From Flaccisagitta enflata (Eukaryota): a DNA stretch of 64,000 bases. The translations under genes and the position numbers were made by a program. This document shows positions 1,146 to 48,500 of the stretch, in pieces (the stretch's first letter is position 1; every line of letters begins with the position of its first letter). A model generated the notes under the pieces. That model saw only the letters and a program-made list of their open reading frames with translations. It was not told where the DNA came from and did not search any database. The DNA lies in the NCBI GenBank assembly GCA_965153355.1, contig OZ231126.1, positions 1,488,001-1,552,000 on the forward strand, given 5' to 3'.

Positions 1146-2103
1146 TTTTTCTTTTTCTTTTCCTTTTTCTTTTTCTTTTTCTTTTTCTTTTTCTATTTTT
1201 TTTTCTTTTTCTTTTTCTTTTTCTTTTTCATTTTCTTTTTCTTTTTCTTTTTCGATTTCTTTTCTCTCCTTTTTCTTTTAACTTAATCTTTATCTTCATC
1301 ATCATCTTCATCTTCATCATCATCATCATCATCATCTTCTTCTTCTTCTTCTTCTTCTTCTTCTTCTTCTTCTTCTTCTTCTTCTTTATCTTCATCTTTT
1401 TCTTCTTCTTCTTCATCTTCATCTTCATCTTCATCTTCATCTTCATCTTTTTCTTCTTCTTCTTCTTCTTCTTCTTCTTCTTCTTCTTCTTCTTCTTCTT
1501 CTTCTTCTTCTTCTTTTTCTTCTTCTTCTCCTTCTCCTTCTTCTTCTTCTTCTTCATCTTCTCCTGCTCTTCAATCTACCTCAGGTTTTTTTTCTTCTTC
1601 TTCTACTTCTTCTTCTTTTTCTTTTTCTTTTTCTTTTTCTTTTTCTTTTTCTTTTTCTTTTTCTTTTTCTTCTTCTTCTTCTTCTTCTGCTTCTCCTTCT
1701 CCTTCATCTTCTCTTTTTCTTCTTTTTCTTTTTCTTTTTCTTTTTTTTTTTCTTTTTCTTTTTCTTTTCCTTCTTCTTCTTCTCCTTCTTCTTCTTCTTC
1801 TTCTTCTTCTCCTCCTACTTCTTCTCCTCCTTCATGTTCTTCTTCTCCTTCTTCTTCTTCTTCTTCTTTTTCTTCTTCTTCTTCTTCTTCTTCTTCTTCT
1901 TCTTCTTCTTCTTCTTCTTCTTCTTCTTCTTCTTCTTCTTCTTCTTCTTGATATCCTCCCTCTCCTCCTGCTCTTCAATCTACCTCAGGTTTTTCTTCAC
2001 GTTGTTATTGCTCTCTTTTCATCATTTCTATTGCCTCCATTTTGATTCTCTTTGTGCGCTAACAGACTCGTTGTCATCATCAATGTCATTATCATTTCAT
2101 CAC

Positions 2104-2166
<63 letters not shown>

Positions 2167-2167
2167 T

Positions 2168-2213
<46 letters not shown>

Positions 2214-2257
2214 ATATTATGATAGTGATAATGATCGTCATCAATGTCATCAATATT

Positions 2258-2353
<96 letters not shown>
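1146..2353. repeat. Compound microsatellite (TTTTTC)n/(TTC)n/(CAT)n
   Basis: Read directly from the sequence. Confidence 0.95.
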
Positions 2354-2354
<1 letters not shown>

Positions 2355-2598
2355 AGCAACTGTTTCAAACTCATATGGTTGAGCCAAAAATGTTGCTTTG
2401 ATTTGTTGTGGAAGAAGGTTGAGCCAAAAATGTTGCTTTGATTTGTTGTGAAAGCACATGAAAAAGCAGCACATAATGAAAAAAACCAGCACCTTTCTTA
2501 TACACTTATCAAAAATTCAGAATTACAGTGGGACCTCAGGATAACGGTCTTGAAAGGACTGGATATTTTTGAAAAGGGGGACTGTTATCATGAAATTT

Positions 2599-2813
2599 AA
2601 CAAGGCCGGATACACGGCTACCCCAGTCGCGTGCGGGTGGGCAGTGGCCTTAATTGAGGTCACTTCATCATTTGGGCAGGTGCAGTGAGGCCAGAGACCG
2701 CAAAAAACAAAAAAAAGTAAAGTGTGACGGACAACAGACGGACCGACGGACAGACGGACCGATAGACAGACCGACAAAGCGGGGTGTAGAGTCGCAAAGA
2801 ACGCGACTAAAAA
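2599..2813 (-). mobile_element. DINE-1/Helentron-like non-autonomous element, family A
   Basis: On the - strand: T-run plus AGTCGCG..GCGACT hairpin, (GTCY)n microsatellite, 3' subterminal GCACGCGACT and GCCG-TGTATC-CGGC hairpin ending CTTGTT. No TSD. Confidence 0.8.
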
Positions 2814-3210
2814 TTTTTGTTTTTTCATCATGATATAAAAGATATGAAAAAATATCATATGTTATAGATAAAAAATACAAACAAGAAATTCAAAGGAAAT
2901 TTATAATAGTAATTTTTTATGATATTATTTACTAGTAATTGTTAACCAAGAAAGAAGCAGTGATGACTCTTTTTAGGGATCCAATGTTTTCAGCAACGCT
3001 CTTCTTTCCTACCTTTTTTCTCCATCTCTTTCTTCACCATGATCCCCTCGCAAATATTCCTCTCAGTTTTTTTTTCCTTTTCTCTTTACTTATATATGTC
3101 CTCCCAGCAAATTCCATGGTTTTCCTTTCTATTGTTAGCTTTCCTCATTTCTCATTCCTTTTCACTCTTTTTTTGCGTCTAAATTCAGGTTTTCAGGCGC
3201 CAAACAACCA

Positions 3211-3845
3211 CTCTGTCTCTTTTAACTCTGTCTCTTTTAACTCTGTCTCTTTTAACTCTGTCTCTTTTAACTCTATCTCTTTTAACTCTGTCTGTTGTAA
3301 CTCTGTCTCTTTTAATTCTGTCTCTTTTTAACTCTGTCTCTTTTAAGTCTGTCTCTTTTAATTCTGTCTCTTTTAACTCTGTCTCTTTTAACTCTGTCTC
3401 TTTTCACTCTGTCTGTTTTAACTCTGTCTCTTTTAACTCTGTCTATTTTGACTCTGTCTCTTTTTACTCTGTCTCCTTTGACTCTGTCTCTTTTCACTCT
3501 GTCTCTTTTAACTCTGTCTCCTTTAACTCTGTCTGTTTTAACTCTGTCTCTTTTCACTCTGTCTCCTTTGACTCTGTCTCTTTTAACTCTGTCTCTTTTA
3601 ACTCTGTCTCATTTAACTCTGTCTCTTTTAACTCTGTCTCTTTCAACTCTGTCTCTTTTAACTCTGTCTCTTTTAACTCTGTCTCCTTTAACTCTGTCTC
3701 TTTTAACTCTGTCTCTTTTAACTCTGTCTCTTTTAACTCTGTCTCTTTTAACTCTGTCTCTTTTAACTCTGTCTCTTTTAACTCTGTCTCTTTTAACTCT
3801 GTCTCTTTTAATTCTGTCTCTTTTAACTCTGCCTCTTTCAAATCT
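3211..3845. repeat. 15-bp minisatellite (ACTCTGTCTCTTTTA)n
   Basis: About 40 near-identical units. Confidence 0.95.
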
Positions 3846-4425
3846 GTCAGTTTTATCTCTGTCTCTCATAACACTCTTTCTGTCTCTCTGAACTCACATT
3901 GTCTTATGTCTCTCTAAACTCGGTTAGCGTCTCCCTGTCTCTCTAAGAGTCTCTAAGAGTCTTAACTCAAGAGTGTCTTTCTGTCTCTCTTAACTTAGAG
4001 TGCCTTCTTCTCCATCATAACTCAAAATTTCTCTCTGTCTTTTTAACTCCAAGTGTCTATCTCTTTGTCTCTCTTAACTCAGAGTGTGTCTGTCTCTCCT
4101 AACAGAAATTGTCTCTCTGTCTCTCTCAACTCGCAGTGGCTCTCTGTCTCTCTCTTATTTAGATTGTCTCTCTGTCTCTCTCAAACCACAGTGTCTCTCT
4201 GTCTCTCTGAACTCCAAGTGTGGCTTTGTCTTTCTGTACTCTTAGTGTCTCTCTGTCTCTCTTCAAACTCTCTATCTCTGTCTTTCTTTACTGTCTCCTG
4301 TTTATCTCGATCTATCTTCGCTCTTTCTCTCTATCCAATATATATCTGAGACTATTTCATTACCTCTCTTTCCTTCTCTCTATCTCTTTCTCTCTCTCTC
4401 TCTCTTTCTCTTTCTCTTTCTCTCC

Positions 4426-4526
<101 letters not shown>

Positions 4527-4626
4527 CTTTTTAGAAAATACTTAAAAAACTGGTGCCGCAAATTCTCTGAAATCTGGAATAACCACTGACTGCTTGTTAT
4601 GCTGTGCTGTGTTTCATGTTTGCGGT

Positions 4627-4719
<93 letters not shown>

Positions 4720-4988
4720 GAAACAGAGAGACAGAGTTATCAAGATAGTTAGTCACACAGACAGAAACACAGTGATAGCGGGTATAAATATTCTCCTCGT
4801 GGCAGAATCTTCTCATATATGAAGTCAAAAGCGAGATTGAATGAGAAAATCTCTATTATCCTATCTTTTGTTGAGCCTCTGGAGGATGGGCCAGTTAGAA
4901 GAGCCTTAACTCAGTCTTACATCATTCTCAACTTGACGCCCATAAAGAGCTCTTCAAGCCTCATCAAGAAACGGAGGAGGAGGAAATG

Positions 4989-5450
4989 GTGAGGATTTGG
5001 GTTGTGAGGACAGGCGTTAGTTAGCAGGGACATGGGCAGGTGAGGACAGGAGTTAGCAGGGATGGGGGTTGGTGAGGACAGGAGTTAGCATGGACAGGGG
5101 TTAATGAGAATAGGAATTAGTTAGCAGGGATGTGGGCTGGTGAAAACAGGAGTTACCAGGGTCGGGGGTTGGTGAGAATAGGAGTTAGCAGGGACAGAGG
5201 TTGGTGAGGACAGGAGTCTGTTTGCATGGATGTGGGCTTGTGAGAACAGGAGTTACCAGGGTTGTGGGTTGGTGAGTTTATTAGTTAGCAGGGACAGGGG
5301 TCGGTGTGGACAGGAGTTAGCAGGGACAAGGGTTGGCGAGGACAGAGATTAGTTAGCAGGGACGTGGGCTGGTGAAGACAGGAGTAAGCAGGGACGGGGG
5401 TTGGTGAGGACAGGAGTTAGCAGGGACAGGGGTTGGTGAGGTCAGGAGTC
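4989..5450. repeat. ~32-36-bp minisatellite (GGTGAGGACAGGAGTTAGCAGGGACAGGGGTT)n
   Basis: About 13 degenerate units. Confidence 0.85.
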
Positions 5451-6322
5451 TGTTGGCGGGGAAGGAGGTGGATGGAGAGTTGGAGACAGAAGCTGGCAAG
5501 TACTTACGTAATAAACCAAAGATCTCAAGAGCGTTAGTTGGTGAGGCAGAGGGGTTGGTTGGTTAATTGGCTGGTTGTTTGATTAGTACAATAGTAGGAC
5601 TTCTTTGGGTTAGGCAGGTCCATAAGTCAGTGGAGTAGATGGACGGGGTTTAGAATGGTGATTTTTTGGAGCCATGGGTTGATGAGGTTGGTGAGGAGGT
5701 GGTTGGAATTTTGACAATGAGGTCATTTGGGCCAATCTAGACTCTAAAAGGGAAAAAGAGGCAAGAAACGCTTCAGACACTTCCTCCCGCCTTTTCCACA
5801 TAATCAACGCCAACACAACCTCATTTGTCCCAACAAAGTCATTTGCATAATTAAGCAAAAGCAGATAAAAACCAGTCTCGTTTTCTAGAAGAGAAGATAA
5901 ATGGGAAAATTGAGCTCAGAAATGGAACATCCTTGAAAAGGACAGAGAGAGAGAGAGAGAGAGAAAGAAAGAGATGTAAAAACCCAGACAGACACGCAGC
6001 GAAAGAGTCATGAAGTGGGAAAAACGGTTGCTGGGACAAAGGGACAGGCAGACACACAAAGACCGTCCAACATAAATGATGGTCGGACAGACAGTCAAGC
6101 AGACGAACAGACAGACGCATAAGGATTACGCTATTTTGGGTCTGCAAAGGTCCAAGAGGTTATTGAATTTAATCCAATCTTGGATATTTCCATTAGCTGA
6201 TGGAAATACAAATGTATTTTATTTACAGTTGAACTCCGCAATAACGGATGCCAAGGGAGCAACAAATTATAACCATTATAAACCAATATCTGTTATTGCC
6301 ATATAAGAAATTCAAAGAAATA

Positions 6323-6498
6323 CAGTTGAACCCCGCTCTAACGGATCTCAAGGGACCAAAAGTTTTCTTCTGTTATAGGCGGACTTCTGTTATTGCCAAC
6401 AAAGGAAAAAAAGAAATTAACTTGAAGGGACCATGAATTTGTGTCTGTTTTAGGCAGAATTCCGTTGGTGGCGGGTCCGTTAGAGCGGGGTTCAACTG
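6323..6498. mobile_element. Tc1/mariner(pogo)-type MITE with TA TSD, nested in an older relative (6226 to about 6560)
   Basis: Perfect 23-bp TIR CAGTTGAACCCCGCTCTAACGGA; TA at 6321-6322 and 6499-6500. The outer copy begins TA|CAGTTGAACTCCGCAATAACGGA at 6226. Confidence 0.9.
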
Positions 6499-34438: not shown

Positions 34439-35224
34439 AACAGAATTGCAGATGGAGAGACAGAAAGAGAGTGAATCAGGCATTCACCTTTTCTCCTTGG
34501 TGATATAGATTCTCTTCTGCCACCCCACCGTTGAAGGTTTAAAACCCAAACTACCACCCATCACTCCCAACCTCCTCCTCCTCCACTTCCTCCTCCTCCT
34601 CTCTCCCTCCTGCTCTTCCTCTTCCTTCCACCCATCACTTCCACACTCGTCACTTATCATTTTTTCTTTTGGCATTTTGTGAAAGAGATTTCGTCACCCC
34701 AAAAAACTTCCTGACATGTCAAATATTCTCCGTAAATTTTCCTTCTTTTTTCCCTATTTTTGAACACTAAGGTCTGAGATATTGGTTATTGGCGAATAGA
34801 TTATCTTTGATGTTTCTATGAAATATGAAAAACATAAATGAACAATCTATAAAGCAAGCTTAGGTGGACAAGTTTTGGGGTGGGAACGGTGAATATGCAA
34901 ACAACTCAATGGCAGAGCAAAATAGCACTGAAGAGATTAAGATTCTTTTTCTTTAAATGTCTTATAAAAATAAATACAGATTGTTGACAAAGCAAACAAG
35001 CAAGCATCGGTCAATTGCAATAAAATCGCTGGTTTTTTTAGCTAATTTTATTTTTCATAAAATAAAACAAAACAATTGTTTTTACAGAAATAGCAAATGA
35101 CTTGACTTATTTCTGTCAGTTCTGGACCAACGTGCGCTTCAACGGCTCGAGGTTGTGGGAAATTTGATTTTCTATAGAAGTTCCGATGTTATTCATGGTC
35201 CTTTTTTGTGAGGGTGTCATCATT

Positions 35225-35629
<405 letters not shown>

Positions 35630-35689
35630 CACTCCGCCGCTCCATATTGTTTCAAAATTTGCATAAACACAATCATGGAATGGAAGATT

Positions 35690-37790
35690 GGACAGGAGAG
35701 AAAGGAGGTAAGAAGAAAGAGGAAGAGAGAAAGAGAAAGAGGAGGAGAGAAAGAGGAAGGAGGTAAGGAAAGAGAAAGAGTAGGTAATGAAAGAGAAAGA
35801 GGAGGTAAGGAAAGAGAAAGGATAGAGAAAGAAGGAGAAGTGAGGGAAAGAGAAAGAGAAGTGAAGAGAAAGAGGTAAGGAAAGAAAGGAGGCAGAAGAA
35901 GAAAGAGGAGATGAGAAAGAGGAAAGGAGGTGAGAAGAGAAAGAGGAGGTAAGAAAGAGAAAGAGGAGGTAAGGAAAGGAGAGGAGGTAAGGAAGAGAGA
36001 GAAAGTGGAAGGTAAGGAGTAAAGAAAGGGAGGTAAGAGGAAAGAGAGAAAGGAGGGCAGGAAAGAGAGAGCAATAGGTAACGAAAGAGAAAGAGGAGGT
36101 AAGGAATGAGAAAGAGAAGGTAATGAAAGAGAAAGAGGAGGTAAGGAAGGAGAAAGAATAGGTAAGGAAAGAGAAAGGGAGGTAAGGAAACAGAAAGGGA
36201 GGTAAGGAAAGAGAAAGGGAGGTAAGGAAAGAGAAAGAGAAGGGAAGGAAAGAGAAAGGGAGGTAAGGAAAGAGAAAGAGGAGGTAAGGAAAGAGAAAGA
36301 GAAGGTAATGAAAGAGAAAGAGGAGGTAAGGAAAGAGAAAGTGGAGGTAAGGGAAGAGAAAGGGAGGTAAGGAAAGAGAAAGGGAGGTAGGGAAAGAGAA
36401 AGAGGAGGTAAGGAAAGAGAAAGGGAGGTAAAAAAGAGAAAGAGGAGGTAAGGAAGGAGAAAGAATAGGTAAGGAAAGAAAAAGGGAGGTAAAAAAAGAG
36501 AAAGGGAGGTAGGAAAAGAGAAAGAGGAGGTAAAAAAAGAGAAAGGGAGGTAAGGAAAGAGAAAGGGAGGTGATAAAAGAGAAAGGGAGGTAAGGAAAGA
36601 GAAAGAGGAGGTAAGGAAAGAGAAAGGGAGGTAAAAAAGAGAAAGGGAGGTAAGGAAAGAGAAAGAGGAGGTAAGGAAAGAGAAAGGGAGGTAAAAAAGA
36701 GAAAGGGAGGTAAGGAAAGAGAAAGAGGAGGTAAGGAAAGAGAAAGGGAGGTAAAAAAGAGAAAGGAGTGAGGAAAGAGAAAGAGGAGGTAAGGAAGAAA
36801 GAGGGAGGTAAGGAAAGAGAAAGGAGGTAAGAGAAGAAGAGTGATAAAGAAAGGAGGTAAGGAAAGAGAACGAGGAGTAAGGAAAGAGAAAGGGAGGTAA
36901 GGAAAGAGAAAGTGGAGGTAAGGAAAGAGAAAGAGGAGGTAAGGAAAGAGAAAGAGGAGGTAAAGGAAAGAAAGGGAGGTAGGGAAGAGAAGAGGATGTA
37001 AGGAAAGAAGGGAGGTAAAAAGAAAGGGAGGTAAGGAAAGAGAAAGAGAAGGGAAGGAAAGAGAAAGGGAGGTAAGGAAAGAGAAAGAGGAGGTAAGGAA
37101 AGAGAAAGAGGAGGTAAGGAAAGAGAAAGAGGAGGTAAGGAAAGAGAAAGAGGAGGTAAGGAAAGAGAAAGAGGAGGTAAGGAAAGAGAAAGAGGAGGTA
37201 AGGAAAGAGAAAGAGGAGGCAAGGAAAGAGAAAGGGAGGTAAGGAAAGAGAATGGGGAGGTAAGGAAAGAGAAAGGGAGTTAAGGAAAGAGAAAGATGAG
37301 GTAAGGAAAGAGAAAGAATAGGTAAGGAATGAGAAAGAGGAGGTAAGGTAAGAGAAAGAGGAGGTAAGGAAAGAGAAAGAGGAGGTAAGGAAGGAGAAAG
37401 AGGAGGTAAGGAAAGAGAGAGAATAGGTAAGGAAAGAGAGAGAATAGGTAACGAAAGAGAAAGAGGAGGTAAGGAAAGAGAAAAAATAGGTAAGGAGAGA
37501 GAAAGGGACGTAAGAAAAGAGAAAGGGAGGTAAGGAAAGAGAAAGAGGAGGTAAGGAAAGAGAAAGAGGAGGTAAGGAAAGAGAAAGGGACATAGGAAAA
37601 GAGAAAGGGAGGTAAGGATAGAGAAAGAGGAGGTAAGGAAAGAGAAAGAGAAGGTAAGGAAACAGAAAGAGGAGGGAAGGATAGAGAAAGAGGAGGTAAG
37701 GAAAGAGAAAACATAGGTAAGGAAAGAGAAAGGGAGGTAAGGAAAGAGAATGAGGAGGTAAGGAAAGAGAAAGAGAGTTAAGGAAAGGGT
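35690..37790. repeat. 2.1-kb polypurine 21-bp minisatellite (GGAGGTAAGGAAAGAGAAAGA)n with 18-bp variants
   Basis: Read directly; it accounts for the 532-aa and 654-aa spurious ORFs. Confidence 0.95.
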
Positions 37791-38564
37791 GAGTTAAGGG
37801 AGAGGGAAAGGGGGTAAGGGATTATGGGGGGAGGGGGGGGTAAAGGAAAGGGGGAATTGACTTCCATAATGAGGGGGGAAGATGCTTAAGGATGTCAGGG
37901 GGAAGAAGTACGAAACGATGTGGGCAAACAGACGGGAGGGGCCGGGGGAACATTATACTTTTACCAGTCCGCACACATCATACCCACTTTTGGAGCACAT
38001 ACACTACCCATTCCTATACCAACTCTTAAACCCCTGCCACGCAACTTCCCAAATTTGCACCAAACAACTTAACCATCGCTTCTACACCTTACCCACTCCT
38101 ACATCTTAGCCACTAGCACACAACGCACATTAGCCATTCCTTCACCAAGCTCCGTACCATTCCTACTCCATTCACCTGCTCCTACACCGTACACCATTAC
38201 CCCCCCCCCCCATCTTGGAAGACTTATCTTCAACCTCGATATATATTTCTTTCTTTTTTTCCCTTCTTTTTTTTTCTTCGCGAAAGAAAATGATGAATTT
38301 CTTACGTGAGTCAGAAAAGGGAGAAAACGTACCACCAACATAAATCACAAACAACAAAATGGCCCAAAATAAGAGTTTTCCACTTTTTGATTTACCCACA
38401 CCTGAGATAACGCGACCAAGGTTTTTTTCTTCACCCTCAAACACAATTTTCTAAAAAAGACTCCATTGCATTACTTCTTTTTCAACCCTTCTATTCTATC
38501 ATAAGGTAAAAAAAGGCCATACAAACAAACACGCAAACAAACAAACAAACAAAAAAACAAACAA

Positions 38565-38667
<103 letters not shown>

Positions 38668-39990
38668 GCCACAATGCTATTCCACTGCGTTGACATGCAG
38701 GTGAAACTCAGTGAAAGGGGATATTTATGAGTGAATTGAATTTTCCGTCTTCCTCTCTTTTTCTGTTCTTTCTTTCTTTTTTCATTCTCTCTTTTTTTCC
38801 ACTTTGACGGACCTCACAATGGGCCGTCAGAAAATATGTCCAAGTTTATGATATCGAATCATTTCATGTTCATTTCTAAGCGTAGTTATAACGTAACCAA
38901 AACTCCTTGAGTTCTCAGTTACAAACTGCCCGGATCTTTTACCATATCGTCAATGAATTTTCCCGTGATTTTTCATTTTCATATCGTAAATACGCCCGTC
39001 ATAAACTCAATTGGATTCTGAAAAGGGAAAAAATGGAGGAAGAAAAAAAAAGGGGCGCTAAATGCTTGGTAGGGGATACGAAGATTCAGGGGGGGGGGGG
39101 AATGTAAGCTTGTGTCAATATCGATGGTCATTACTGTAGTCTACTCCACAGATAAACACAATTGTTAGAAATGTGTGTCTGTCCGTCTCTTAGGTGTGTG
39201 TGCCTTCTGTCTCTTTTGCGTGCTTTTGGCTTTTTTCTCTTTCTCTACTATTCGATGCCCGTGTCTTTTGTTTCTTGCCATTTTTTATATTGAACGCTAG
39301 ATGGGTAACCATATGGTTGCGCCTTGATTTTGTGCCATTTGTTTTTACTACGTAGGCAAATATACGTAACTCGTCTTTCGTATCATCCAATTTTTGGATT
39401 GATTGATTTTATTTAATTATGGCATCGCTTCTTAAAGTGATTGATTGATTTTTATGATCGTTTGAATGCGCCCTAGGTCACTAATTTCCAAGTAATCTAT
39501 ATCTTTGTACTGCAGATAAACTAATGAACGGACAATTAACGTTAATTTGACATCGACAGACTGTGGGTTGAAACCAACGAAAGTGGGCCTAAAAGTAAGT
39601 TTTATAGGCGTGTTTCTGCTTTTATTAACGTGTTGTTTATCTTGTTTTCCGGTCTGTTATTTTTGTCTTTTGCCCTTTTGCATTTTTATCGCCGGATTTT
39701 AGTATGGTTTTTATCGCTTGCCCGGTCAGCTTACTATATGTGATGATATGGATGAATTTAATGGGATAGGCCGGGGGCAGGGGCGGGTATTGTCTGGGTT
39801 TGGCTATAGGCTCTGAAAAAGATGAACATGTTGTCGTATTATCATTTCCTGTCCTTTAATGTATCCTATCTAAATTCATATTTATCTTTCGTTTACTTAG
39901 TCTAGTGCAGCCCACTTTCCTTTCATTTTTCCCCTCTCTTCAGTTGTTAAGAAATTTTATGGAATAAACAGGCATTCATATCCTAGCCTG

Positions 39991-40614
39991 TCAGCCCTTT
40001 CTTTCACCTGGTGTCAGTCTGAGAATGGCATCTCTACAAGAACAGAAATTACCAGTTGAAACTCCGAAGTAATATATTCTTTCGGCCCTACGAGGATAGG
40101 CGTTGTTCCACGCGTCCCAATCATCGTCGATCCAGTTATCGGGCTTCCTGCTTCTGCCGGTCCTGAAGGCGTGTTCGTCGTTTCTTCGATGGCGGATGAA
40201 GTTCTTCCACTCTCTTTTGTCTTCCCGCTGCTCGTTCATATCTCTCATCATCGGGTCCTCATCACGCGGCGCTTCCTCGACCGCGATGTGATCCCGGCTG
40301 CTGCTCGTCCTTGGGCGGACACTCGCAATCCTGGTTTCGCTGCGGTGTCGTCTAGGATCTTCCGGCGAGCGGACGGGTGGACGGCTGGCGTCTTGGGAGG
40401 CTTGAGGAGGAGGAAGATCCTCGTCCTGGCGATCTGCGATGGCTTCCGCCCCGCGATGACGAGAGCTGCGGCGCGTTGCCTGCCTTTGATCGGAATCGTT
40501 ACGAGTTGACGAAGTCGCTATTTCATCGTCGGCGTTGCCACGACGTCTTCTTCTCGCATGGTTCTGATCGTCCTCTTCCTGGTCGCGTGCTGCCCTGCTT
40601 GGTCGTTTCGCCAT
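39991..40614 (-). CDS. ORF3 of the retrotransposon, 207 aa, Arg/Asp-rich N-half and Trp-rich C-terminal segment; function unknown
   Basis: GC-rich island between AT-rich flanks, starting ATG GCG AAA at 40614 on the same strand as ORF1 and ORF2. The frame is open from 40941. Confidence 0.6.
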   Translation of the reverse strand: MAKRPSRAARDQEEDDQNHARRRRRGNADDEIATSSTRNDSDQRQATRRSSRHRGAEAIADRQDEDLPPPQASQDASRPPVRSPEDPRRHRSETRIASVRPRTSSSRDHIAVEEAPRDEDPMMRDMNEQREDKREWKNFIRHRRNDEHAFRTGRSRKPDNWIDDDWDAWNNAYPRRAERIYYFGVSTGNFCSCRDAILRLTPGERKG

Positions 40615-40838
40615 CTGGATAAATTTAACGAGTATAGGTACTGATGCATGAAAAGACAGTAAAAGTGTATTGAAAAGCCTATTGGCCCGGATATTGATTT
40701 GTTTATGGGTGGTCACCGTTATGTCTCTTTTACTGTACAGGAACAAGTCTGTTATTCTGTCAATTATGTAGCTGGTATCAACCCCCCAAATCACTGGGCA
40801 TCGTTCCACAATAAAAGCCCTTGCTGCCCAGGCGCACT

Positions 40839-43811
40839 TTACTGCGAGTATGATAGCCTGTGTAAAGAACATAGTTTGTGTGTTAATGGCCTCGGCAGTG
40901 TCTTCGTCATGCCGTCTGGTGAGTAGGTGCATATAATGCACTTAGTGTTGTTTAGTCTATCGTCAAGTCCTGATAGGCTGGTAAGTTTTTCAAAGGGGCT
41001 CGTGAACTTTCCCCTCTTGCTGATGACACAGCGACTTTGAAATTTTGCCATGTTTGGGTTGTTGCTATTGATCGCGCAGAATCTGTTAATTGCTCTACTC
41101 CTTATGGTCTCCTTGAAGGTGGGGGTGTTTATGATGTTAAACACAGCGTGGTCCGGTGTGCGCCTGGGGACGTTTAAGATGCCTTTTAGCGCACGCATTT
41201 GGCATTGGTGTATTTTGTTCCAGTGGCAGGCTGCAGCGTTGATCCATGCAACCGAGCTATAATCGAACAACGAGATGATCAGCGAGTTAACGAGTTGTAG
41301 CACTAAACCGTTGTCTCTGCCATAGAGACTTTCCGCGAATCTCCTTATTTGGATGCTCCGGGGTGTTGCTTTTTGGATGAGTTTGTTGATGTGTTTGGCC
41401 CACGTTAGGCCTTGGTCAAATGTTACGCCGAGAAAACACACTTCTTTCACAGTTTTTAAACGCTGCCCAAATAGTTGTAACGTCGTTTCATGATTCCTGT
41501 TGAGTTTGGAGTCACTAAAGATCATCACTTCGGTTTTTATTGGGCTTGGAAGCATCCTCCACGTACTTCCCCAGACCTGTAGGGCGTCGAGATATTTCTG
41601 AATTTCGACCTTGGCGATTCGTAGGCCAGTTCTTGCTTTCACAAACGCTCTCCATTCAGCATTGTCGTCGGCGTATCCTGAGCCATCGCTTCTTGTGCAG
41701 ATTATGTCCATGGTGTCAGATCCGGGTACGTCGCCGATGTAGTAAGTGAAGATTGGGGGACTAGAGGTTCCTCCTTGCGGTGCTGATGCTCCCAGGTTTC
41801 GGATTGATGAAAGGACGTCTCCGTCTTTTATCTGGAATTGTCGATTTAGCAAGAAACTGGCTATGATTTTTATAAGTGGGTAGGGAGCTTTGTCGCACAG
41901 GAGTTTGTAGATGACACCATTGTGCCATAACTTATCGAAAGCTTTTTCGAGGTCGATGAATACACCGATGACGTGTTGACCGTTTTTGAAGGCGTTGGAG
42001 ATGTTGTCAGCTAGTTTGATGACTGATTCTTGAGCACTGCGTCCTTTGGCGAAGCCACACTGTCTTGGTCTGCGTTTGTTGTTTTCGTCAAGAAATTTGT
42101 TGAATGATTTCAAGTAGATTTTTTCAAGAATTTTTCCCATTGTAGCGCACAGGGAGATCGGACGATAGTTGCCGCTTTTAGTTGCATCTTTCCCTGGTTT
42201 GGGGATCATCGTTACCCAGCTTAGTTTCCAGGCTTTGGGGAAGTATGAGGTGGCGACACAAGCGTTGAAGATTATCACAAGGCGTTTTATCGCAAGAGTG
42301 GTGAAGCGTTTTAGCAGGTAGTGGTCAATGCCGTCCGGACCCGCTGCGCCATTCGGTTTAATAGCTTTAATCAAGTTGGTTGTTTCTTCTTCTGTTGTCA
42401 TCATGAATGTACGTTCGTCGTTGAAGTCAATATTGTCGATGTTGTCGCAAACAGTTGGTTCACTAATGCCACTGTGATCCTCGTTAATCTGATCGTCCAC
42501 AGCTGTTGTGAAGTTTGAGTCGATTCGCGGGTCGTTATCAAGGCTGCAGGTATGCTCTAGTCGCGTCGCGTGGGTTTCTACGTTGTCCTGTTTACTTTGG
42601 CACTTACTTCCGTTGTCTCTTGTTAGGGCTTTGAACGAGGAGGTTTTGTTGTTACGGTTCATGATGGCGTTCATTTTTTTCCATCTTTTTTTTGGGCAGT
42701 TTTCCTTGAGCACTTCGGATCCTTTATGTATCAGATGTAGTTCTTCGTCTCGTTTTATATGGCGTTTAATTTCACGTTCAAGGAAGTTTGATCTTTGGCG
42801 TTCGGTTGATGAGAAGTTGGCACGATTACGGGTGCGTTTCCTTATAAGTTGGCGTCGCTCCGTTATTAGGGCGTTGGTGCTGGCGCTAAGTACGACACCG
42901 TTATTTGTTCTTAACCTTTTTGTGTGTGTTGCCGCGTTTTTGCCGTCCATGATGCATTTGGTGAAGTTCACGATTTCTTTGTCGATTAGTTTTGCGTCGA
43001 ATCGCCGATTGAGGTCGATTTTCGATGGATTTTCGTTGAGATTTTTGTCAATTTCTATGTGGAGTATGTCGTCGTTCACAATGCTTATAAACGTGGGCTC
43101 GTTTCGCTGGCGCATTCTCAGGTTTATCGTTATTGGAAGGTGGTCGCTGCCAATTGGATCGTCAACACTGTAGTTAATTAGGATTTCGTTTGCTTTCTTA
43201 TTGAGGAATATCATGTCGAGCACATTGTCGTCGCCACGTTTGTTGTTGATGTATGTTGGTATTTTATTTTTGACGTACGATAAGCCGTTAGATTCCGTGA
43301 GGATGCGAAGTGCTTCACCGCTAGTCGTGTCACAATTGCTTCCGAAAGATTTGAGGCTGGAGTTGAAGTCACCAAGGAGTATCGCTGGTATGTTGTTTCC
43401 TGCTGTATTTGTAAGGTTGTTGATGAGTGTGGCGTCAATCAGATCCCCAGGGTGCACATAGTGAGTCCCTACTATGAGACTCTTGTTGTTTATTTGTATT
43501 TTACAGATCATCGATTCCTTTTCTGGCGTGTCGATTATCGTCACAAAGTATTTTTTAGGAATTGCCATTGCTACTCCACCGGCGTACCTTTCTCGGTCTG
43601 GATTGTTTCTGATCATTATGTTGTGATTTTTAAGCGTGATTTTGTCGTCTTCTGCGTGTAAACGGCAGTCATTTAGAACAAATATATCTTGGGAGCTTGT
43701 TTTGCTATTAATTCTATTTACAAGTTCAAGCAATCTAAGTGGGTTACCGTTTGTATTAATGGCGGTGCATCTGATTGAACCGTCCACTGGTCTTCCGTCT
43801 GAATTATCCAT
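40839..43811 (-). CDS. ORF2: apurinic-like endonuclease plus reverse transcriptase (about 990 aa from the first ATG)
   Basis: APE motifs INTNG, GGVA, GDFN, PTY, LD, SDHLPI. RT motifs GPDGI, IPKPGK, YRPISL, QCGF, DLEKAFD, PQG, YADD, FLGV. C-terminal CxxC..H..C. No internal stops. Confidence 0.95.
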   Translation of the reverse strand: MDNSDGRPVDGSIRCTAINTNGNPLRLLELVNRINSKTSSQDIFVLNDCRLHAEDDKITLKNHNIMIRNNPDRERYAGGVAMAIPKKYFVTIIDTPEKESMICKIQINNKSLIVGTHYVHPGDLIDATLINNLTNTAGNNIPAILLGDFNSSLKSFGSNCDTTSGEALRILTESNGLSYVKNKIPTYINNKRGDDNVLDMIFLNKKANEILINYSVDDPIGSDHLPITINLRMRQRNEPTFISIVNDDILHIEIDKNLNENPSKIDLNRRFDAKLIDKEIVNFTKCIMDGKNAATHTKRLRTNNGVVLSASTNALITERRQLIRKRTRNRANFSSTERQRSNFLEREIKRHIKRDEELHLIHKGSEVLKENCPKKRWKKMNAIMNRNNKTSSFKALTRDNGSKCQSKQDNVETHATRLEHTCSLDNDPRIDSNFTTAVDDQINEDHSGISEPTVCDNIDNIDFNDERTFMMTTEEETTNLIKAIKPNGAAGPDGIDHYLLKRFTTLAIKRLVIIFNACVATSYFPKAWKLSWVTMIPKPGKDATKSGNYRPISLCATMGKILEKIYLKSFNKFLDENNKRRPRQCGFAKGRSAQESVIKLADNISNAFKNGQHVIGVFIDLEKAFDKLWHNGVIYKLLCDKAPYPLIKIIASFLLNRQFQIKDGDVLSSIRNLGASAPQGGTSSPPIFTYYIGDVPGSDTMDIICTRSDGSGYADDNAEWRAFVKARTGLRIAKVEIQKYLDALQVWGSTWRMLPSPIKTEVMIFSDSKLNRNHETTLQLFGQRLKTVKEVCFLGVTFDQGLTWAKHINKLIQKATPRSIQIRRFAESLYGRDNGLVLQLVNSLIISLFDYSSVAWINAAACHWNKIHQCQMRALKGILNVPRRTPDHAVFNIINTPTFKETIRSRAINRFCAINSNNPNMAKFQSRCVISKRGKFTSPFEKLTSLSGLDDRLNNTKCIICTYSPDGMTKTLPRPLTHKLCSLHRLSYSQ

Positions 43812-44125
43812 TGTCGCTTGATGTCCCGGCTGCGCTCCACACTCGTTAGGGAAAGGACTGCCTCTGCCAAATGACCTGGCCGTCTTGGCAGAAGAGGCTC
43901 TGGGTTCCACGACTCTGGAAGATCTAGAATGGTATTTCTTTGGATCACAATATGGTTGTTCGTGAATGCAACACGGGCGTTTGTTAGATCTATGGACCCC
44001 AATCCCACTTCCTGACCTGAAGTTGCCTGCAGGTTCTTTAGGAGAACTGGGTGCGGGAGTGGGAGGGGGGGCATCGACATGCTGCTCCCGGAAGCCCTCA
44101 AGTGATCTGTCCCGGTATCTGAAGT

Positions 44126-47100
44126 CTAGGGACGCGAATCTGGGACTTCCTGACCTTGGCGCTCGGATCCTGTCGGATTTTTATGTTTACCGTTTTTAAA
44201 TTTGCTGTCGTTAGTTTTGTCATTATCTCGTGTGGGATCTGCCGACCTGCTACGGGATCCATGCTCTGATGACTCAGCCTCCGAGTCTTCACTTTCGCTT
44301 GAGCCCGAGGAAGATCCGTCTCCTTCTTCCTCATGCGTGTTTGCGACCATCTCTTCTTCTTCGTCACTGTCATCGGCGTCGTCCCACGCTCCCATGATTT
44401 GTCCTGCATGTTTTGGAGCAGTGATCTTTACAAAGTTTGAAAAGAACCCTTTGAGATTTTTTGACTGGTTGTCTAGTTTTTTTCCAATCTTTCTTGTGCG
44501 TTTTTTCTGCTTTTTCCTATCGTCCTCTTGTCTGTTACATAGGTACTGTTGTCCTAGGACTAGATCGTTGACAGTCTTTTCAAGTGTCGCGATACGAGCG
44601 TCCATTTGGTCCTTATTCTCCCATGTGTCCGAGGGTGTGTTAGATGCTGCTCTCTGAGAGTTCTGAGAACCACCTGGGTTTGGCCAGCCATTACTACCAT
44701 TTCTCGGATAGCTTATGTCTTCCTGTGCTGTGTAATTGACCCTGTCTGCCCATGACGTTGTAGTTGGATTGCTCCTGTTTACCTCCAGGGCGGTGTTAGG
44801 TCTTGTGGCGTCATCATTACCTTGTGTGCCATTACTGGTGTTGGTGTTGTTATTGTTGTTACTGTTTTGCCTACCATGCCGTAGATCTCTCTTCTTCTGG
44901 ACGATGTCTCTATAATTGATGCTTCTCGGGCAGTCCCTCGAGTTGCTCCGATGGTCCCCCGCACAATTGGCGCATTTGACATCGAATGGGCAGTTGTTGC
45001 TTTCCCAGTCGTTAGGGATGTTAGATGCGCCTTCCGGATATTTCTCGTGGTGCCCTGTTTGACCGCACTTCCGACAACGACGTTCATAGACGCAGGCCGC
45101 TCCATGATGACCCCACCGAAGGCAGTCTCGACACTGGCCGGTTCTAGTGTCTCTGAAGATGTCGCAGTTGAATTTTTTGAATCCGATCTCGATGGTTCCT
45201 TCTTCTACGTCGCCGCCTGGGTTAATGAGCTTTCTGACATTCTCCTTGCTCGTCATTATGACCGTCTGTTCTCGCGTGTTTCTGTTCGCAGCGCCCGGGT
45301 TTGAGACCCTTGTGATCGTGGTTACCGAGGTGACTTCGATTCCCAAATCTTCCAAGAATTGCTTGACGTACTCGTCAGACATGCTCGTGGGGATGCGGAA
45401 GAGGATTGCCTGGTGCGTCGGCGTCCTTGGGGCATCAAGCTCTGCGGTGACGGGTCCCGGTTGGAATGTGCGCCAGGAGTTTTGGTCTAAGGCGATGCTT
45501 TTGGTTCTGTCGTCGCCTACATTGATGATGACTGAACCTTTGTTCCTTCCATCCATGTAGCAGTCTGTTATGGTGACTGCTGACTTGTTGGCTCGGAGAT
45601 GTTGAAGGAGGCGGGCGCCGATACGATGCCTATCCGCCTGTCCATTAGACATTATGTCTGGAAGCGTGATGAGTGCCGGGCAATGGATTCGCACGCGTCT
45701 GTACGACTTAGTTTTTGGGTCGATCAGATCGTTGCCCTCTGATCCTCCCGGGATTCCCCCAATAGCTCCTGCGGCGACGGGAGCGGAAGCAGATGATGCG
45801 TCGTCGGGCTGCAGCTGAGGTGGCGCTGCGGCGGCGGCGGCAGCGGCGGCGGGGGCTCCTGCGAAGGCGGGAGCGGAAGATATGTCGACGGGCTGTTGTT
45901 GAGACGGCGCTGCCACGGCGGCGGCGGCTATAGGGGGAGTCGAGGGTGACGACGAGGCGCGTAGAAGTGGCGGCGGTGGCGGCGCTTCACCGGGAGTGTT
46001 GGCGGCGTGCGAGCGATTAGAGCTGTAGTTGGCCGATGTAGCCCCCAGGTCGCTTGGAGGGGAAGAGTGACTTATGTCCATAGCGTCAGCTTTGGCGTCT
46101 TTTTCATCAATGCGGCGTCTAGCTTCATCCGCGTAATCTTCTTCGCTGGCTTCGCCTTCAAGACCCCCTTCCATGTCCTTACGCTCGCTCGTCCCCGGCG
46201 GCACAACGATTCCTTTGTCGGTTTTAGCCTTCTTTTTCTTTTTCTTCTTTTTGTCTTTGTCCGTGTCAGTTGGCGGTTTCGAGTTTCCTAAGTCGTCTTA
46301 TCGGTCGTCATTACTATCGATGGCCATTGTCGTCGTCGATATTTGGTCGGGTAATTGGCGCACTGGGTGGCTAACGGGCGTCGCTTTGCTTACCGCTGTA
46401 CCTGTTGTCGTTAGCGGTGTCGAAGTTGGGGTCGATGCACTCGTTGACGAAGAGATCGGCGCGGACGCAGATGGCTTTGGCGTCGGAAGGGCGTTCGCGA
46501 GCCGTGGACTTGCTGCGGGCGGAGACTTGTTGACCAGCGTATCGCCGATGAAAGCGAAGACCCCTTGGTCTCTTTGGTCTTCTTCAATGTTAGCGATCAA
46601 AGGGGCCACGTGACCTGGTGACGCTTGAGACGATTTCGGTCTTTTTTGTTGGTCTGTTGGCGAGTTATCGCTCAGCGCGCGCTTCTGCTTCCGGTCGAGA
46701 CTTTGGCTACGCTCTTCTGTTTCTTTGTCACTGTTAGTATCTGAAATGGGAAAGGAGAGAACCGGGGGGATTGTTAGAGGGGTTGCAGAGGTAAGTGTAT
46801 GGGTGCTGGTTTCAGCACCGACGGATGGACACTTTGTTAATCTCCTTGAGGCGACAACTGCTTTATTTTTCCATGTTTGCAATCGGTGGCTGCCAGCTTT
46901 ATTTGCTGGTTTTGCGTTGTTTCCATGCAAAATTTCGTTCACTGCGCTGGAGGTAGCTTCCGACGTTTTGCTTTTTAGTTTCGATACGTTCGAGTCGAAA
47001 GAATCGGTTTTTTTTGAATTTGCCGCCAAATTATCATGGCTGCCTCCTTCGTCTAGGGAGAGATTGAGAGGGTTAAGTGTACGCTGACGCCCGGCTTCAA

Positions 47101-47338
47101 TTTCCGCGCGAGTGGTTGCTCGTCTACTGTTCGGCGTGCCGATACCGGCTATCGAGCCCGGTGGCCTGCCCCTTGGCAGCCCCTTTGGGCTATTTTCGAC
47201 GATTTTTGACGCGTTGAGTCTTGATCGTGTTCTAACCCCACTCGTATCGGGGGTTGCGGGGCTAGCAACAAGTGTTTGGTCAACAACGCTGCCATTTTTC
47301 GACGCCGTGTTTTTATACTGCGTTTTATTATTTCTCAT
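44126..47338 (-). CDS. ORF1 (gag-like, three CCHC knuckles), about 1,070 codons with one in-frame TAA at 46298-46300
   Basis: Track ORFs 46298-47497 and 44126-46204 share a frame and are joined by 31 sense codons after the TAA. Knuckles are CRDCLRWGHHGAAC, CRKCGQTGH-X19-C and CANCAGDHRSNSRDC. First ATG at 47338. Confidence 0.85.
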
Positions 47339-47674
47339 CGCCGAACTGTTTTTCTGTGCTTCGACATCGCCTTTGTTGCACTTGGAGCCGCTTTTCCCGG
47401 GCTCCGGTCGTTGTCCGTTCTGGCCGTTTTTCGTCAGTTTGGTTGGAGTTTCATTGCTTCGCAAGTGTTTAGGTTTGACACAGTGTTCGTAGCGCAATTC
47501 ACGGGGAGAAGCTAATTTTTAGATCTGAGTCTTAATGATAGTTTTTGAATTGGTATAGATATTACTAAGGCGTTCTGTGTTCGATTTCGACGTCGGTCGA
47601 AACAGGTCTTGACTTGCCAAATCCGTCAAAGGCGATCCCGGAACACCAAACTTTAAACAAGTGAAGTAGTAGAA

Positions 47675-48500
47675 AAAATGACCATAATGACAAAAATGAC
47701 CAAAGATGACCAAAATGACAAAATGACCAGCTACCAAACCAAGTAAAATGACCAAAGTGACCAAAAAATGACCAAAAATGATCAAAAATGATCAAAATTG
47801 ACCAAAAATGACCAAAATTGACCAAAATTGACCAAAATTGACCAAAATTGACCAAAAATGACCAAAATGACCGAAATGACCAAAATGACCAAAATGAACA
47901 AAATGACCGAAATGACAAAAATGATCAAAAATGTCCAAAATGACCAAAATGACCAAAATGACCAAAATGACCAAAAATGACCAAAAATGACCAAATATGA
48001 TCAAAAATGACCAAAAATGACCAAAAATGACCAAAAATGACCAAAAATGACCAAAATGACCAAAAATGACCAAAAATGACCAAAAATGACCAAAATGACC
48101 AAAATGACCAGAATGACCAGAATGACCAAAATGACCAAAATGACCAAAATGACCATAATGACCATAATGACCAAAAATGACCAAAAATGACCAAAATGAC
48201 CAAAATGACCAAAATGACCAAAATGACCAAAAATGATCAAAAAGGCCAAAATGACCAAAATGACCAAAATGACCAAAATGACCAAAATGACCAAAATGAC
48301 CAAAATGACCAAAATGACCAAAAATGACCAAAAATGACCAAAAATGATCAAAAATGACCAAAATTGATCAAAATTGATCAAAAATGACCAAAAATGACCA
48401 AAATTGACCAAAATTGACCAAAATTGACCAAAATGACCAAAGTGACCAAAATAACCAAAATGACCAAAAATGACCAAAAATGACCAAAACTGACCAAAAT
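47675..48500. repeat. 9-10-bp minisatellite (AAAATGACC/AAAAATGACC)n
   Basis: Read directly; related to the internal tracts at 53420-53770 and 60820-60900. Confidence 0.95.

Follow-up and report, generated by a model that had tools for sequence, protein, structure and literature searches.

The 64,000-nucleotide stretch of Flaccisagitta enflata DNA that we analysed (contig OZ231126.1 of assembly GCA_965153355.1, positions 1,488,001 to 1,552,000; hereafter the window, with coordinates counted from its first letter) carries on its minus strand a long interspersed nuclear element (LINE), whose open reading frames (ORFs) are collected in Table 1. ORF2 matches the Pfam reverse transcriptase family RVT_1 over residues 536-798 (E 1e-23) and the endonuclease families Exo_endo_phos_2 (residues 117-227, E 3.4e-13) and Exo_endo_phos (E 0.001), and judged by its sequence the element is an endonuclease-type retrotransposon of the kind lacking long terminal repeats (non-LTR), that is, a LINE. 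The CCHC knuckles of ORF1 fit the wider Jockey-like superfamily. RNase H, the domain that follows the reverse transcriptase in LINEs of the I clade, was not among the Pfam matches of ORF2 at E <= 0.1, and by this sign ORF2 does not have the I-clade arrangement. LINEs are normally described with ORF1 and ORF2 only. Here, a third frame on the same strand is open from stop to stop over 39991-40941 (316 codons, stop at 39991-39993), with in-frame ATGs at 40932, 40872 and 40614. We conclude, with a probability of about 0.85, that this frame, ORF3, is a genuine and conserved third gene of the LINE, of which the window holds the 5' half, the window copy being a dead one in which ORF3 breaks off at about 40066-40075 and gives way to apparently unrelated repeat DNA. 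A preliminary description of the locus had already placed a sense-strand third ORF 3' of the reverse transcriptase, and both the frames and the homologues described below bear this out; its account of a frame open from 40941, of the overlap with ORF2 and of the ATGs at 40932 and 40872 proved correct when the coordinates were recomputed.

Table 1. Features of the LINE, of its ORF3 and of the adjoining repeat (positions in the window)
Feature	Position	Strand	Remarks
Frame 5' of ORF1	46298-47518	-	406 open codons; first ATG 47338 (346 aa); Ser/Thr/Pro-rich; no Pfam match
ORF1	44126-46174	-	682 aa, standard code; two CCHC-type zinc knuckles by pattern; no Pfam match
ORF1 zinc knuckles	45092-45133; 44930-44974	-	CX2CX4HX4C and CX2CX3HX6C, respectively; pattern search
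ORF2	40839-43811	-	990 aa; apurinic-type endonuclease (residues 19-227) and reverse transcriptase (536-798)
ORF2/ORF3 overlap	40839-40941	-	103 nt; ORF3 in -1 frame
Conserved part of ORF3 in window copy	40075-40932	-	residues 1-286 from ATG 40932 = profile positions 1-270 of 604; tblastn, alignment, hmmsearch E 1.4e-148
ORF3 N-terminal module	40615-40872	-	conserved hydrophobic/Cys segment of ~47 residues, then variable linker with in-frame indels
ORF3 basic/acidic region	40213-40614	-	starts at conserved Q-M-A-K-R-P (ATG 40614); RRRRR at 40540-40554; low-confidence model
ORF3 tryptophan-rich motif	40075-40212	-	EWKNF via WIDDDWDAW to RAER; 19 invariant family columns; helices, predicted local distance difference test score (pLDDT) 82-91
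Breakpoint tail	39991-40074	-	27 codons and stop; no match to any relative
Repeat next to break	39291-39969	not assigned	abundant, unlike LINE; contigs of X2, X1 and X18 depart from window sequence at 39969

It is the protein family of ORF3 that carries this conclusion. A word-indexed search with a 207-residue version, read from ATG 40614, found 2 relatives among 524 candidates; phmmer with the 313-residue window ORF gave 5 matches in an exhaustive search of 1.84 billion representatives; and, when the C-terminal half of P0003, the best of these, served as query in a further word-indexed search, 7 proteins were returned among 8000 scored candidates. P0003 is 604 residues long; its match to window residues 21-288 has 77% identity, and about 330 residues more follow. 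Counting cluster members, the family comprises 38 proteins, all unnamed and all from European Nucleotide Archive (ENA) assemblies. Fourteen of them, in five clusters at 90% identity, are 604-647 residues long and 42-96% identical to P0003, the other lineages of full length aligning at 96, 79, 64, 45 and 42%. The acidic tail SDEEESDD ends 29 of the 38 proteins, the tryptophan motif is present in 30, and K-T-A-R-K-[ST] is also found in 30, that is, in every protein that reaches the region; the proteins without one or another of these features are N- or C-terminal fragments, together with P0010, whose tail is a variant one. Along the alignment, conserved blocks are separated by variable linkers, and all indels are in frame. 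Members of 370-394 residues were considered as a separate isoform, which we rejected: every one of them starts where the first internal Met follows a repetitive stretch, and they are probably products of assembly breaks. Contigs from Joint Genome Institute (JGI) metagenomes gave 130 pattern matches to the ORF3 profile, of which none was confirmed. In the same contigs the C-terminus of ORF2 matched 8 loci of distant LINEs (26-39% identity, tblastn), and no ORF3 relative was present at them at E < 0.09; the only one with room downstream, L002, has no ORF of at least 90 residues in the 2.8 kb after ORF2, and as one degenerate, distant element it is a weak control.

A chance open frame in a GC-rich, non-coding 3' untranslated region (UTR) is hardly credible as an account of this family. 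The window copy, taken alone, might suggest it, having no Pfam match, no usable match in the ESM Atlas (searched with the 207-residue fragment) and no fold match. Moreover, the 40 variant rows listed, out of 646, include five ORF3 sites at which all, or almost all, matched contigs disagree with the window; four of these lie at codon position 2 (40301, 40424, 40427 and 40697) and one at position 3 (40594). Such differences, however, fit the decay of the window copy alone, a single dead copy, and not that of the family. When neutral substitution was simulated over the 266 conserved window codons (2000 trials, substitutions without indels, over less than half of the real ORF3 length), an open frame survived in 7% of the runs at 80% amino acid identity and in 0.3% at 54%, so that neutral decay rarely keeps such a frame, and a chance ORF would not be expected to leave 14 relatives of matching length with common blocks and a common tail. 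Since the frame is open and the blocks are shared down to 42% identity, we take it that ORF3 is not a chance ORF.

Along the protein, the blocks come in the following order. A module of about 47 residues at the N-terminus is followed by a variable linker, by the invariant Q-M-A-K-R-P with its basic/acidic stretch, and by the tryptophan block, whose 19 invariant columns read F..RR.D....R.G.S..P..WI..DW.AW..A...RAER. Next come a poly-proline block, an acidic run with a hydrophobic core, DIKHR with F-K-x-P-E-x-x-K-T-A-R-K-[ST], and R-Y-[IV]-P-L with SSSPSPPP; a basic cluster, a conserved C-terminal block of about 85 residues and the acidic tail SDEEESDD complete the protein. In one subfamily, about 34 residues of the basic/acidic region are duplicated in tandem and in frame (P0014 and P0011, residues ~150-200), which is not the case in the window copy; the database entries of 370-394 residues all start directly behind this repetitive part. 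P0006 (92 aa, on 4 contigs) and P0005 are distant relatives of the N-module only (45-47% identity); should the 92 residues of P0006 be its natural length, ORF3 may have been short at first and have gained the GC-rich extension later.

The window holds the first part of this protein only. Relatives searched against the whole window by tblastn match at 40932-40066 and nowhere else, the profile hidden Markov model of the family finds only its positions 1-270 of 604, and the C-terminal ~330 residues of ORF3 occur nowhere in the window. After RAER the window continues with 27 unrelated residues and a stop, where P0011, the closest relative, continues into the proline-rich block. By these comparisons, the window ORF3 is a 3'-truncated, dead copy. 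The preliminary description had rightly recognised a GC-rich ORF of 207 codons from ATG 40614 (GC 0.59 over 40075-40614, against 0.45 in ORF2 and 0.41 over 40615-40872) and an R/D/E-rich part (K+R 0.22 and D+E 0.19 in the middle of ORF3). Its view that the gene is a 207-residue one ending at the window stop does not hold, because intact relatives extend about 330 residues further. Of the aromatic C-terminal segment that it had singled out, the portion from EWKNF to RAER is the best conserved of the whole family, whereas the last 27 residues (YYFG-FCSC-ERKG, 39994-40074) match no relative. ORF3 is about 600-650 residues long in intact copies and most likely starts at or near the ATG at 40872, which overlaps ORF2. 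In all relatives that extend so far, the frame 5' of ATG 40614 is open and can be aligned, its indels being in frame. Length, C-terminus and start codon are thus misleading when read from the truncated window copy alone.

The repeat at the break differs from the LINE in abundance. In the DNA run X2, summed word depth, which is only a rough measure, is 550,445-743,197 over 39291-39870 and 1274-6439 over ORF2 and ORF3, so that the repeat exceeds the LINE bins some 100-600-fold; metatranscriptome contigs contain it as well. It may be a short interspersed nuclear element (SINE)-like element and, as far as the data show, is not part of the LINE. Rfam and tRNA scans of 38000-41000 gave two sub-threshold Rfam rows and no tRNA, and the window contains no second copy of the repeat.

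Evidence of an indirect kind, all pointing the same way, also supports the view that ORF3 belongs to the LINE and is not UTR noise. The ORF2/ORF3 junction is bridged by contigs of X2 (40704-40970) and of the metatranscriptome X18 (40743-40925), and P0011, P0001 and P0002, as well as the distant P0005, retain similar sequence upstream through the overlap with ORF2. By the same rough measure, word depth in X2 is 3296-6439 over ORF3, 1274-4958 over ORF2 and 274-1148 at the 5' end (45671-47120). ORF3 is thus covered as deeply as ORF2 and more deeply than the 5' end, as one would expect where LINE copies are truncated at their 5' ends. The element is matched by 4030 contig pieces of X2, 1123 of which are at least 99% alike, marking the family as an abundant and young one in organism A.

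A different origin for the same frame, with ORF3, or its GC-rich part from MAKRP on, being a captured host coding sequence that rides along without a role in the life cycle of the element, seems quite improbable to us. GC content does shift sharply at 40614 (0.41 to 0.59), the protein is unlike known LINE proteins, and P0006, the N-terminal-only relative of 92 residues, suggests that the N-module may exist without the extension. On the other hand, no free-standing homologue was found in our searches, the LINE-linked module is there in every match extending to the N-terminus, and frame and motifs have been kept across lineages that are 42-45% identical, longer than a useless passenger would last by the decay simulation. 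The preliminary description had allowed for a captured gene; the GC jump at 40614 is the one observation that speaks for it, and the search for a cellular homologue came back empty. ORF3 also gave nothing against ORF1, ORF2 or the frame 5' of ORF1 ('ORF0') of its own element by blastp at E < 0.07.

How ORF3 might be translated is suggested by its junction with ORF2. The ATG at 40872 lies 31 nt before the ORF2 stop TAA (40839-40841) and has an A at -3. Five relatives of 604-647 residues, from as many lineages, begin at the segment M-F-x-T-Q, which in the window falls at this very place, and six other full-length relatives start at a Met 26 codons further in. Termination-reinitiation at overlapping ORFs is familiar from RNA viruses and from some LINE ORF1/ORF2 junctions. 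These systems resemble the present one in having a downstream AUG tens of nt before the upstream stop, in another frame and with no slippery site, the ORF3 case being known from its sequence alone. Possibly, then, ribosomes that end ORF2 at the TAA would reinitiate at the AUG 31 nt upstream, and full-length LINE RNA would yield small amounts of ORF3. Coupling of this kind is our first choice for the expression of ORF3, a tentative one held at well short of even odds.

Two other routes to the protein were weighed against reinitiation. ORF3 could be a C-terminal extension of ORF2 made by -1 ribosomal frameshifting in the overlap, as its frame, and the fact that ORF2 is likewise in the -1 frame relative to ORF1 with overlapping open frames, might suggest. 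This is very improbable, since no slippery heptamer X_XXY_YYZ occurs in the ORF2 frame over 40839-40950 and a Met stands at the M-F-x-T-Q position in the five lineages. Alternatively, ORF3 could be real but expressed independently of reinitiation, through leaky scanning, an internal promoter or a subgenomic or spliced mRNA that serves ORF3 only. We judge this unlikely, although the several in-frame Mets (40932, 40872 and 40614), the invariance of the Met in Q-M-A-K-R-P, the six P0014-type relatives of 605-607 residues that are called from a later Met (MIWGVD) and the GC step at 40614 all give it some substance. Wherever a lineage extends this far, the ~85-110 codons before Q-M-A-K-R-P are open and their indels in frame, which would be needless were 40614 the start. 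No splice joint was seen over ORF3, an uninformative result since RNA coverage is almost nil.

Structure prediction adds little detail to the picture of a protein that may be mostly disordered. AlphaFold modelled P0003, from an alignment of 10 sequences, with a mean pLDDT of 42, the only confident part being ~205-272 (82-91, helices), and the C-terminal half of ORF3 alone with a mean of 46; the A-R-K-[ST] site lies in a conserved segment of low pLDDT. The structure search proposed in the preliminary description thus yielded no specific fold with AlphaFold and Foldseek, and did give a confident tryptophan segment. P0003, P0008 and P0011 have no Pfam match, and the family profile found 0 matches at E <= 1 among PDB sequences. 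A candidate match of P0007 to EIF_2_alpha, its sole Pfam row, was set aside as sub-threshold (E 0.078). The claim that the protein is an undescribed one is upheld by the family's lack of Pfam, PDB and fold matches.

Its conserved short motifs and basic clusters, together with a model of low confidence, suggest that the ORF3 protein may act as a nuclear adaptor. Anti-silencing, targeting and nuclear import had already been put forward as possible functions in the preliminary description. It would be mostly disordered, with basic clusters resembling nuclear localisation signals, a small tryptophan-rich helical module and a series of linear motifs, namely the H3K9/G9a-like ARK[ST], the acidic-hydrophobic stretch, the poly-proline block and the acidic tail. 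Through these it would couple the LINE ribonucleoprotein (RNP) to host chromatin machinery, and this coupling could serve the choice of insertion sites or the blunting of H3K9-based silencing. We offer the adaptor role with reserve, as one that is doubtful in the light of present evidence. Its most specific lead is a role at H3K9 chromatin, in targeting or anti-silencing, because of the likeness of ARK[ST] to the H3K9, H3K27, H1K26 and G9a contexts. The acidic-hydrophobic stretch may resemble a SUMO-interaction motif. In a bolder version, to which we give small odds, the LINE lineage would have evolved or captured a disordered protein of 600 residues that presents the H3K9-like ARK[ST], the SUMO-interaction-like stretch and the acidic tail in order to engage the H3K9-methylation/HP1 machinery, as a silencing decoy or as a device for homing to heterochromatin. 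If true, a non-LTR retrotransposon would for the first time be found to encode a histone mimic or an anti-silencing protein. The case for ORF8 as a viral histone mimic is reportedly disputed (10.1101/2021.11.10.468057; PMC10833455).

Several results weigh against the explanation as a whole, a real ORF3 that is translated by reinitiation and serves as a nuclear adaptor. As to the element, ORF2 directly 5' of a full-length ORF3 was not seen outside the window, the relatives having been compared as proteins, and a protein search with the ORF2 C-terminus gave 14 matches, none of them on a contig equal in length to one that encodes ORF3. The protein database holds called ORFs only, so that broken copies are under-represented. 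As to expression, the invariant Met of Q-M-A-K-R-P at 40614, like the GC jump there, would be compatible with another start or a shorter product; polyA RNA of organism A gave 2 of 12.2 million records (about 6% of run X22) on the element, both less than 90% alike; and X18 gave only 53 contig pieces on it, perhaps carried over from DNA. As to function, both ORF3 models are poor, Foldseek found no match in the PDB at E <= 0.001, and a wide VIA-align search reached at best Z 5.7, with generic helical hairpins that aligned to N-terminal residues of low model confidence. When the 84 residues of P0015 that surround the ARKS site were searched against the PDB, no chain came up at E <= 10, not even a histone, and the functional reading rests on motifs of 4-8 residues, which can arise by chance. 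On balance, we still lean toward the explanation as a whole.

The remainder of the element and its surroundings can be described briefly. The frame 5' of ORF1 is in phase with it, a single TAA (46298-46300) standing between them, and is possibly part of the element, as a longer ORF1 or an 'ORF0'; intact copies may have an ORF1 of about 1100 residues, or else one more ORF upstream of it. At 43817, just upstream of the ORF2 ATG, 2 nt present in other copies are missing from the window, the extra 2 nt accounting for all of the depth in X2 (one contig) and for 60 of 99 in X1. Because the third frame upstream of ORF2 is full of stops, this difference gives no longer ORF2. The window also lacks 3 nt at 43644, inside ORF2. 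No further copy of the LINE was found in the window by blastn. Just past the 5' side of the LINE begins a tandem array of a 9-nt unit (47675-48500, ~88 copies, 87% matches). Purine/pyrimidine simple repeats of great length, made up of (CT)n/(GA)n tracts and, at 37500-37787, of an AG-rich array with a 21-nt period, occupy 35186-37800 and 38568-38665 and yield spurious ORFs of up to 730 codons. The 27 other long ORFs of the window gave a single sub-threshold Pfam row.

Extra ORFs are known from other retroelements. Primate L1 ORF0 is a lineage-restricted ORF that is reported to raise mobility modestly (PMC5203782, PMC4700185). It resembles ORF3 in being an additional LINE ORF beyond ORF1 and ORF2, but is antisense, in the 5' UTR and 71 residues long, whereas ORF3 is in sense, 3' of the reverse transcriptase, ~600-650 residues long and kept across lineages that are 42% identical. 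The ORF3s of LTR and Penelope-like elements (env, GDSL esterase, DEDDy exonuclease) are described as captured accessory ORFs 3' of pol (PMC5408684, PMC5718144). The LINE ORF3 is likewise accessory and downstream of pol, but those proteins have recognisable enzyme or envelope folds, whereas the LINE ORF3 sits in a non-LTR element, is without a Pfam, PDB or fold match and gives a mostly low-confidence model. As for ARKS/ARKT, it is reported that the H3K9, H3K27, H1K26 and G9a K165 contexts bind HP1 or Polycomb when methylated, and that in ADNP the ARKS motif contributed little and its methyl-peptide did not bind HP1 (PMC3022755). With such H3K9-like non-histone motifs (G9a K165, H1K26, ADNP) ORF3 has in common K-T-A-R-K-[ST] within a conserved block, the short motif alone. 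In the full-text literature as far as it could be seen, subscription-only works and Repbase aside, the only third or downstream ORF of non-LTR elements was the antisense L1 ORF0; the other ORF3s were those of LTR, Penelope-like and DIRS elements.

By sequence, then, ORF3 is an undescribed, conserved accessory gene on an otherwise ordinary LINE backbone. The proper objects for its study are the full-length family members, available as proteins, as the window holds a truncated 5' half only. A long and conserved third protein encoded on the sense strand would mean that non-LTR elements, too, can carry accessory genes, like retroviruses and some LTR and Penelope-like elements. Moreover, the LINE with ORF3 represents an abundant and recently active family in marine plankton DNA, and it would offer a system in which questions of chromatin targeting, escape from silencing or RNP transport may be addressed.

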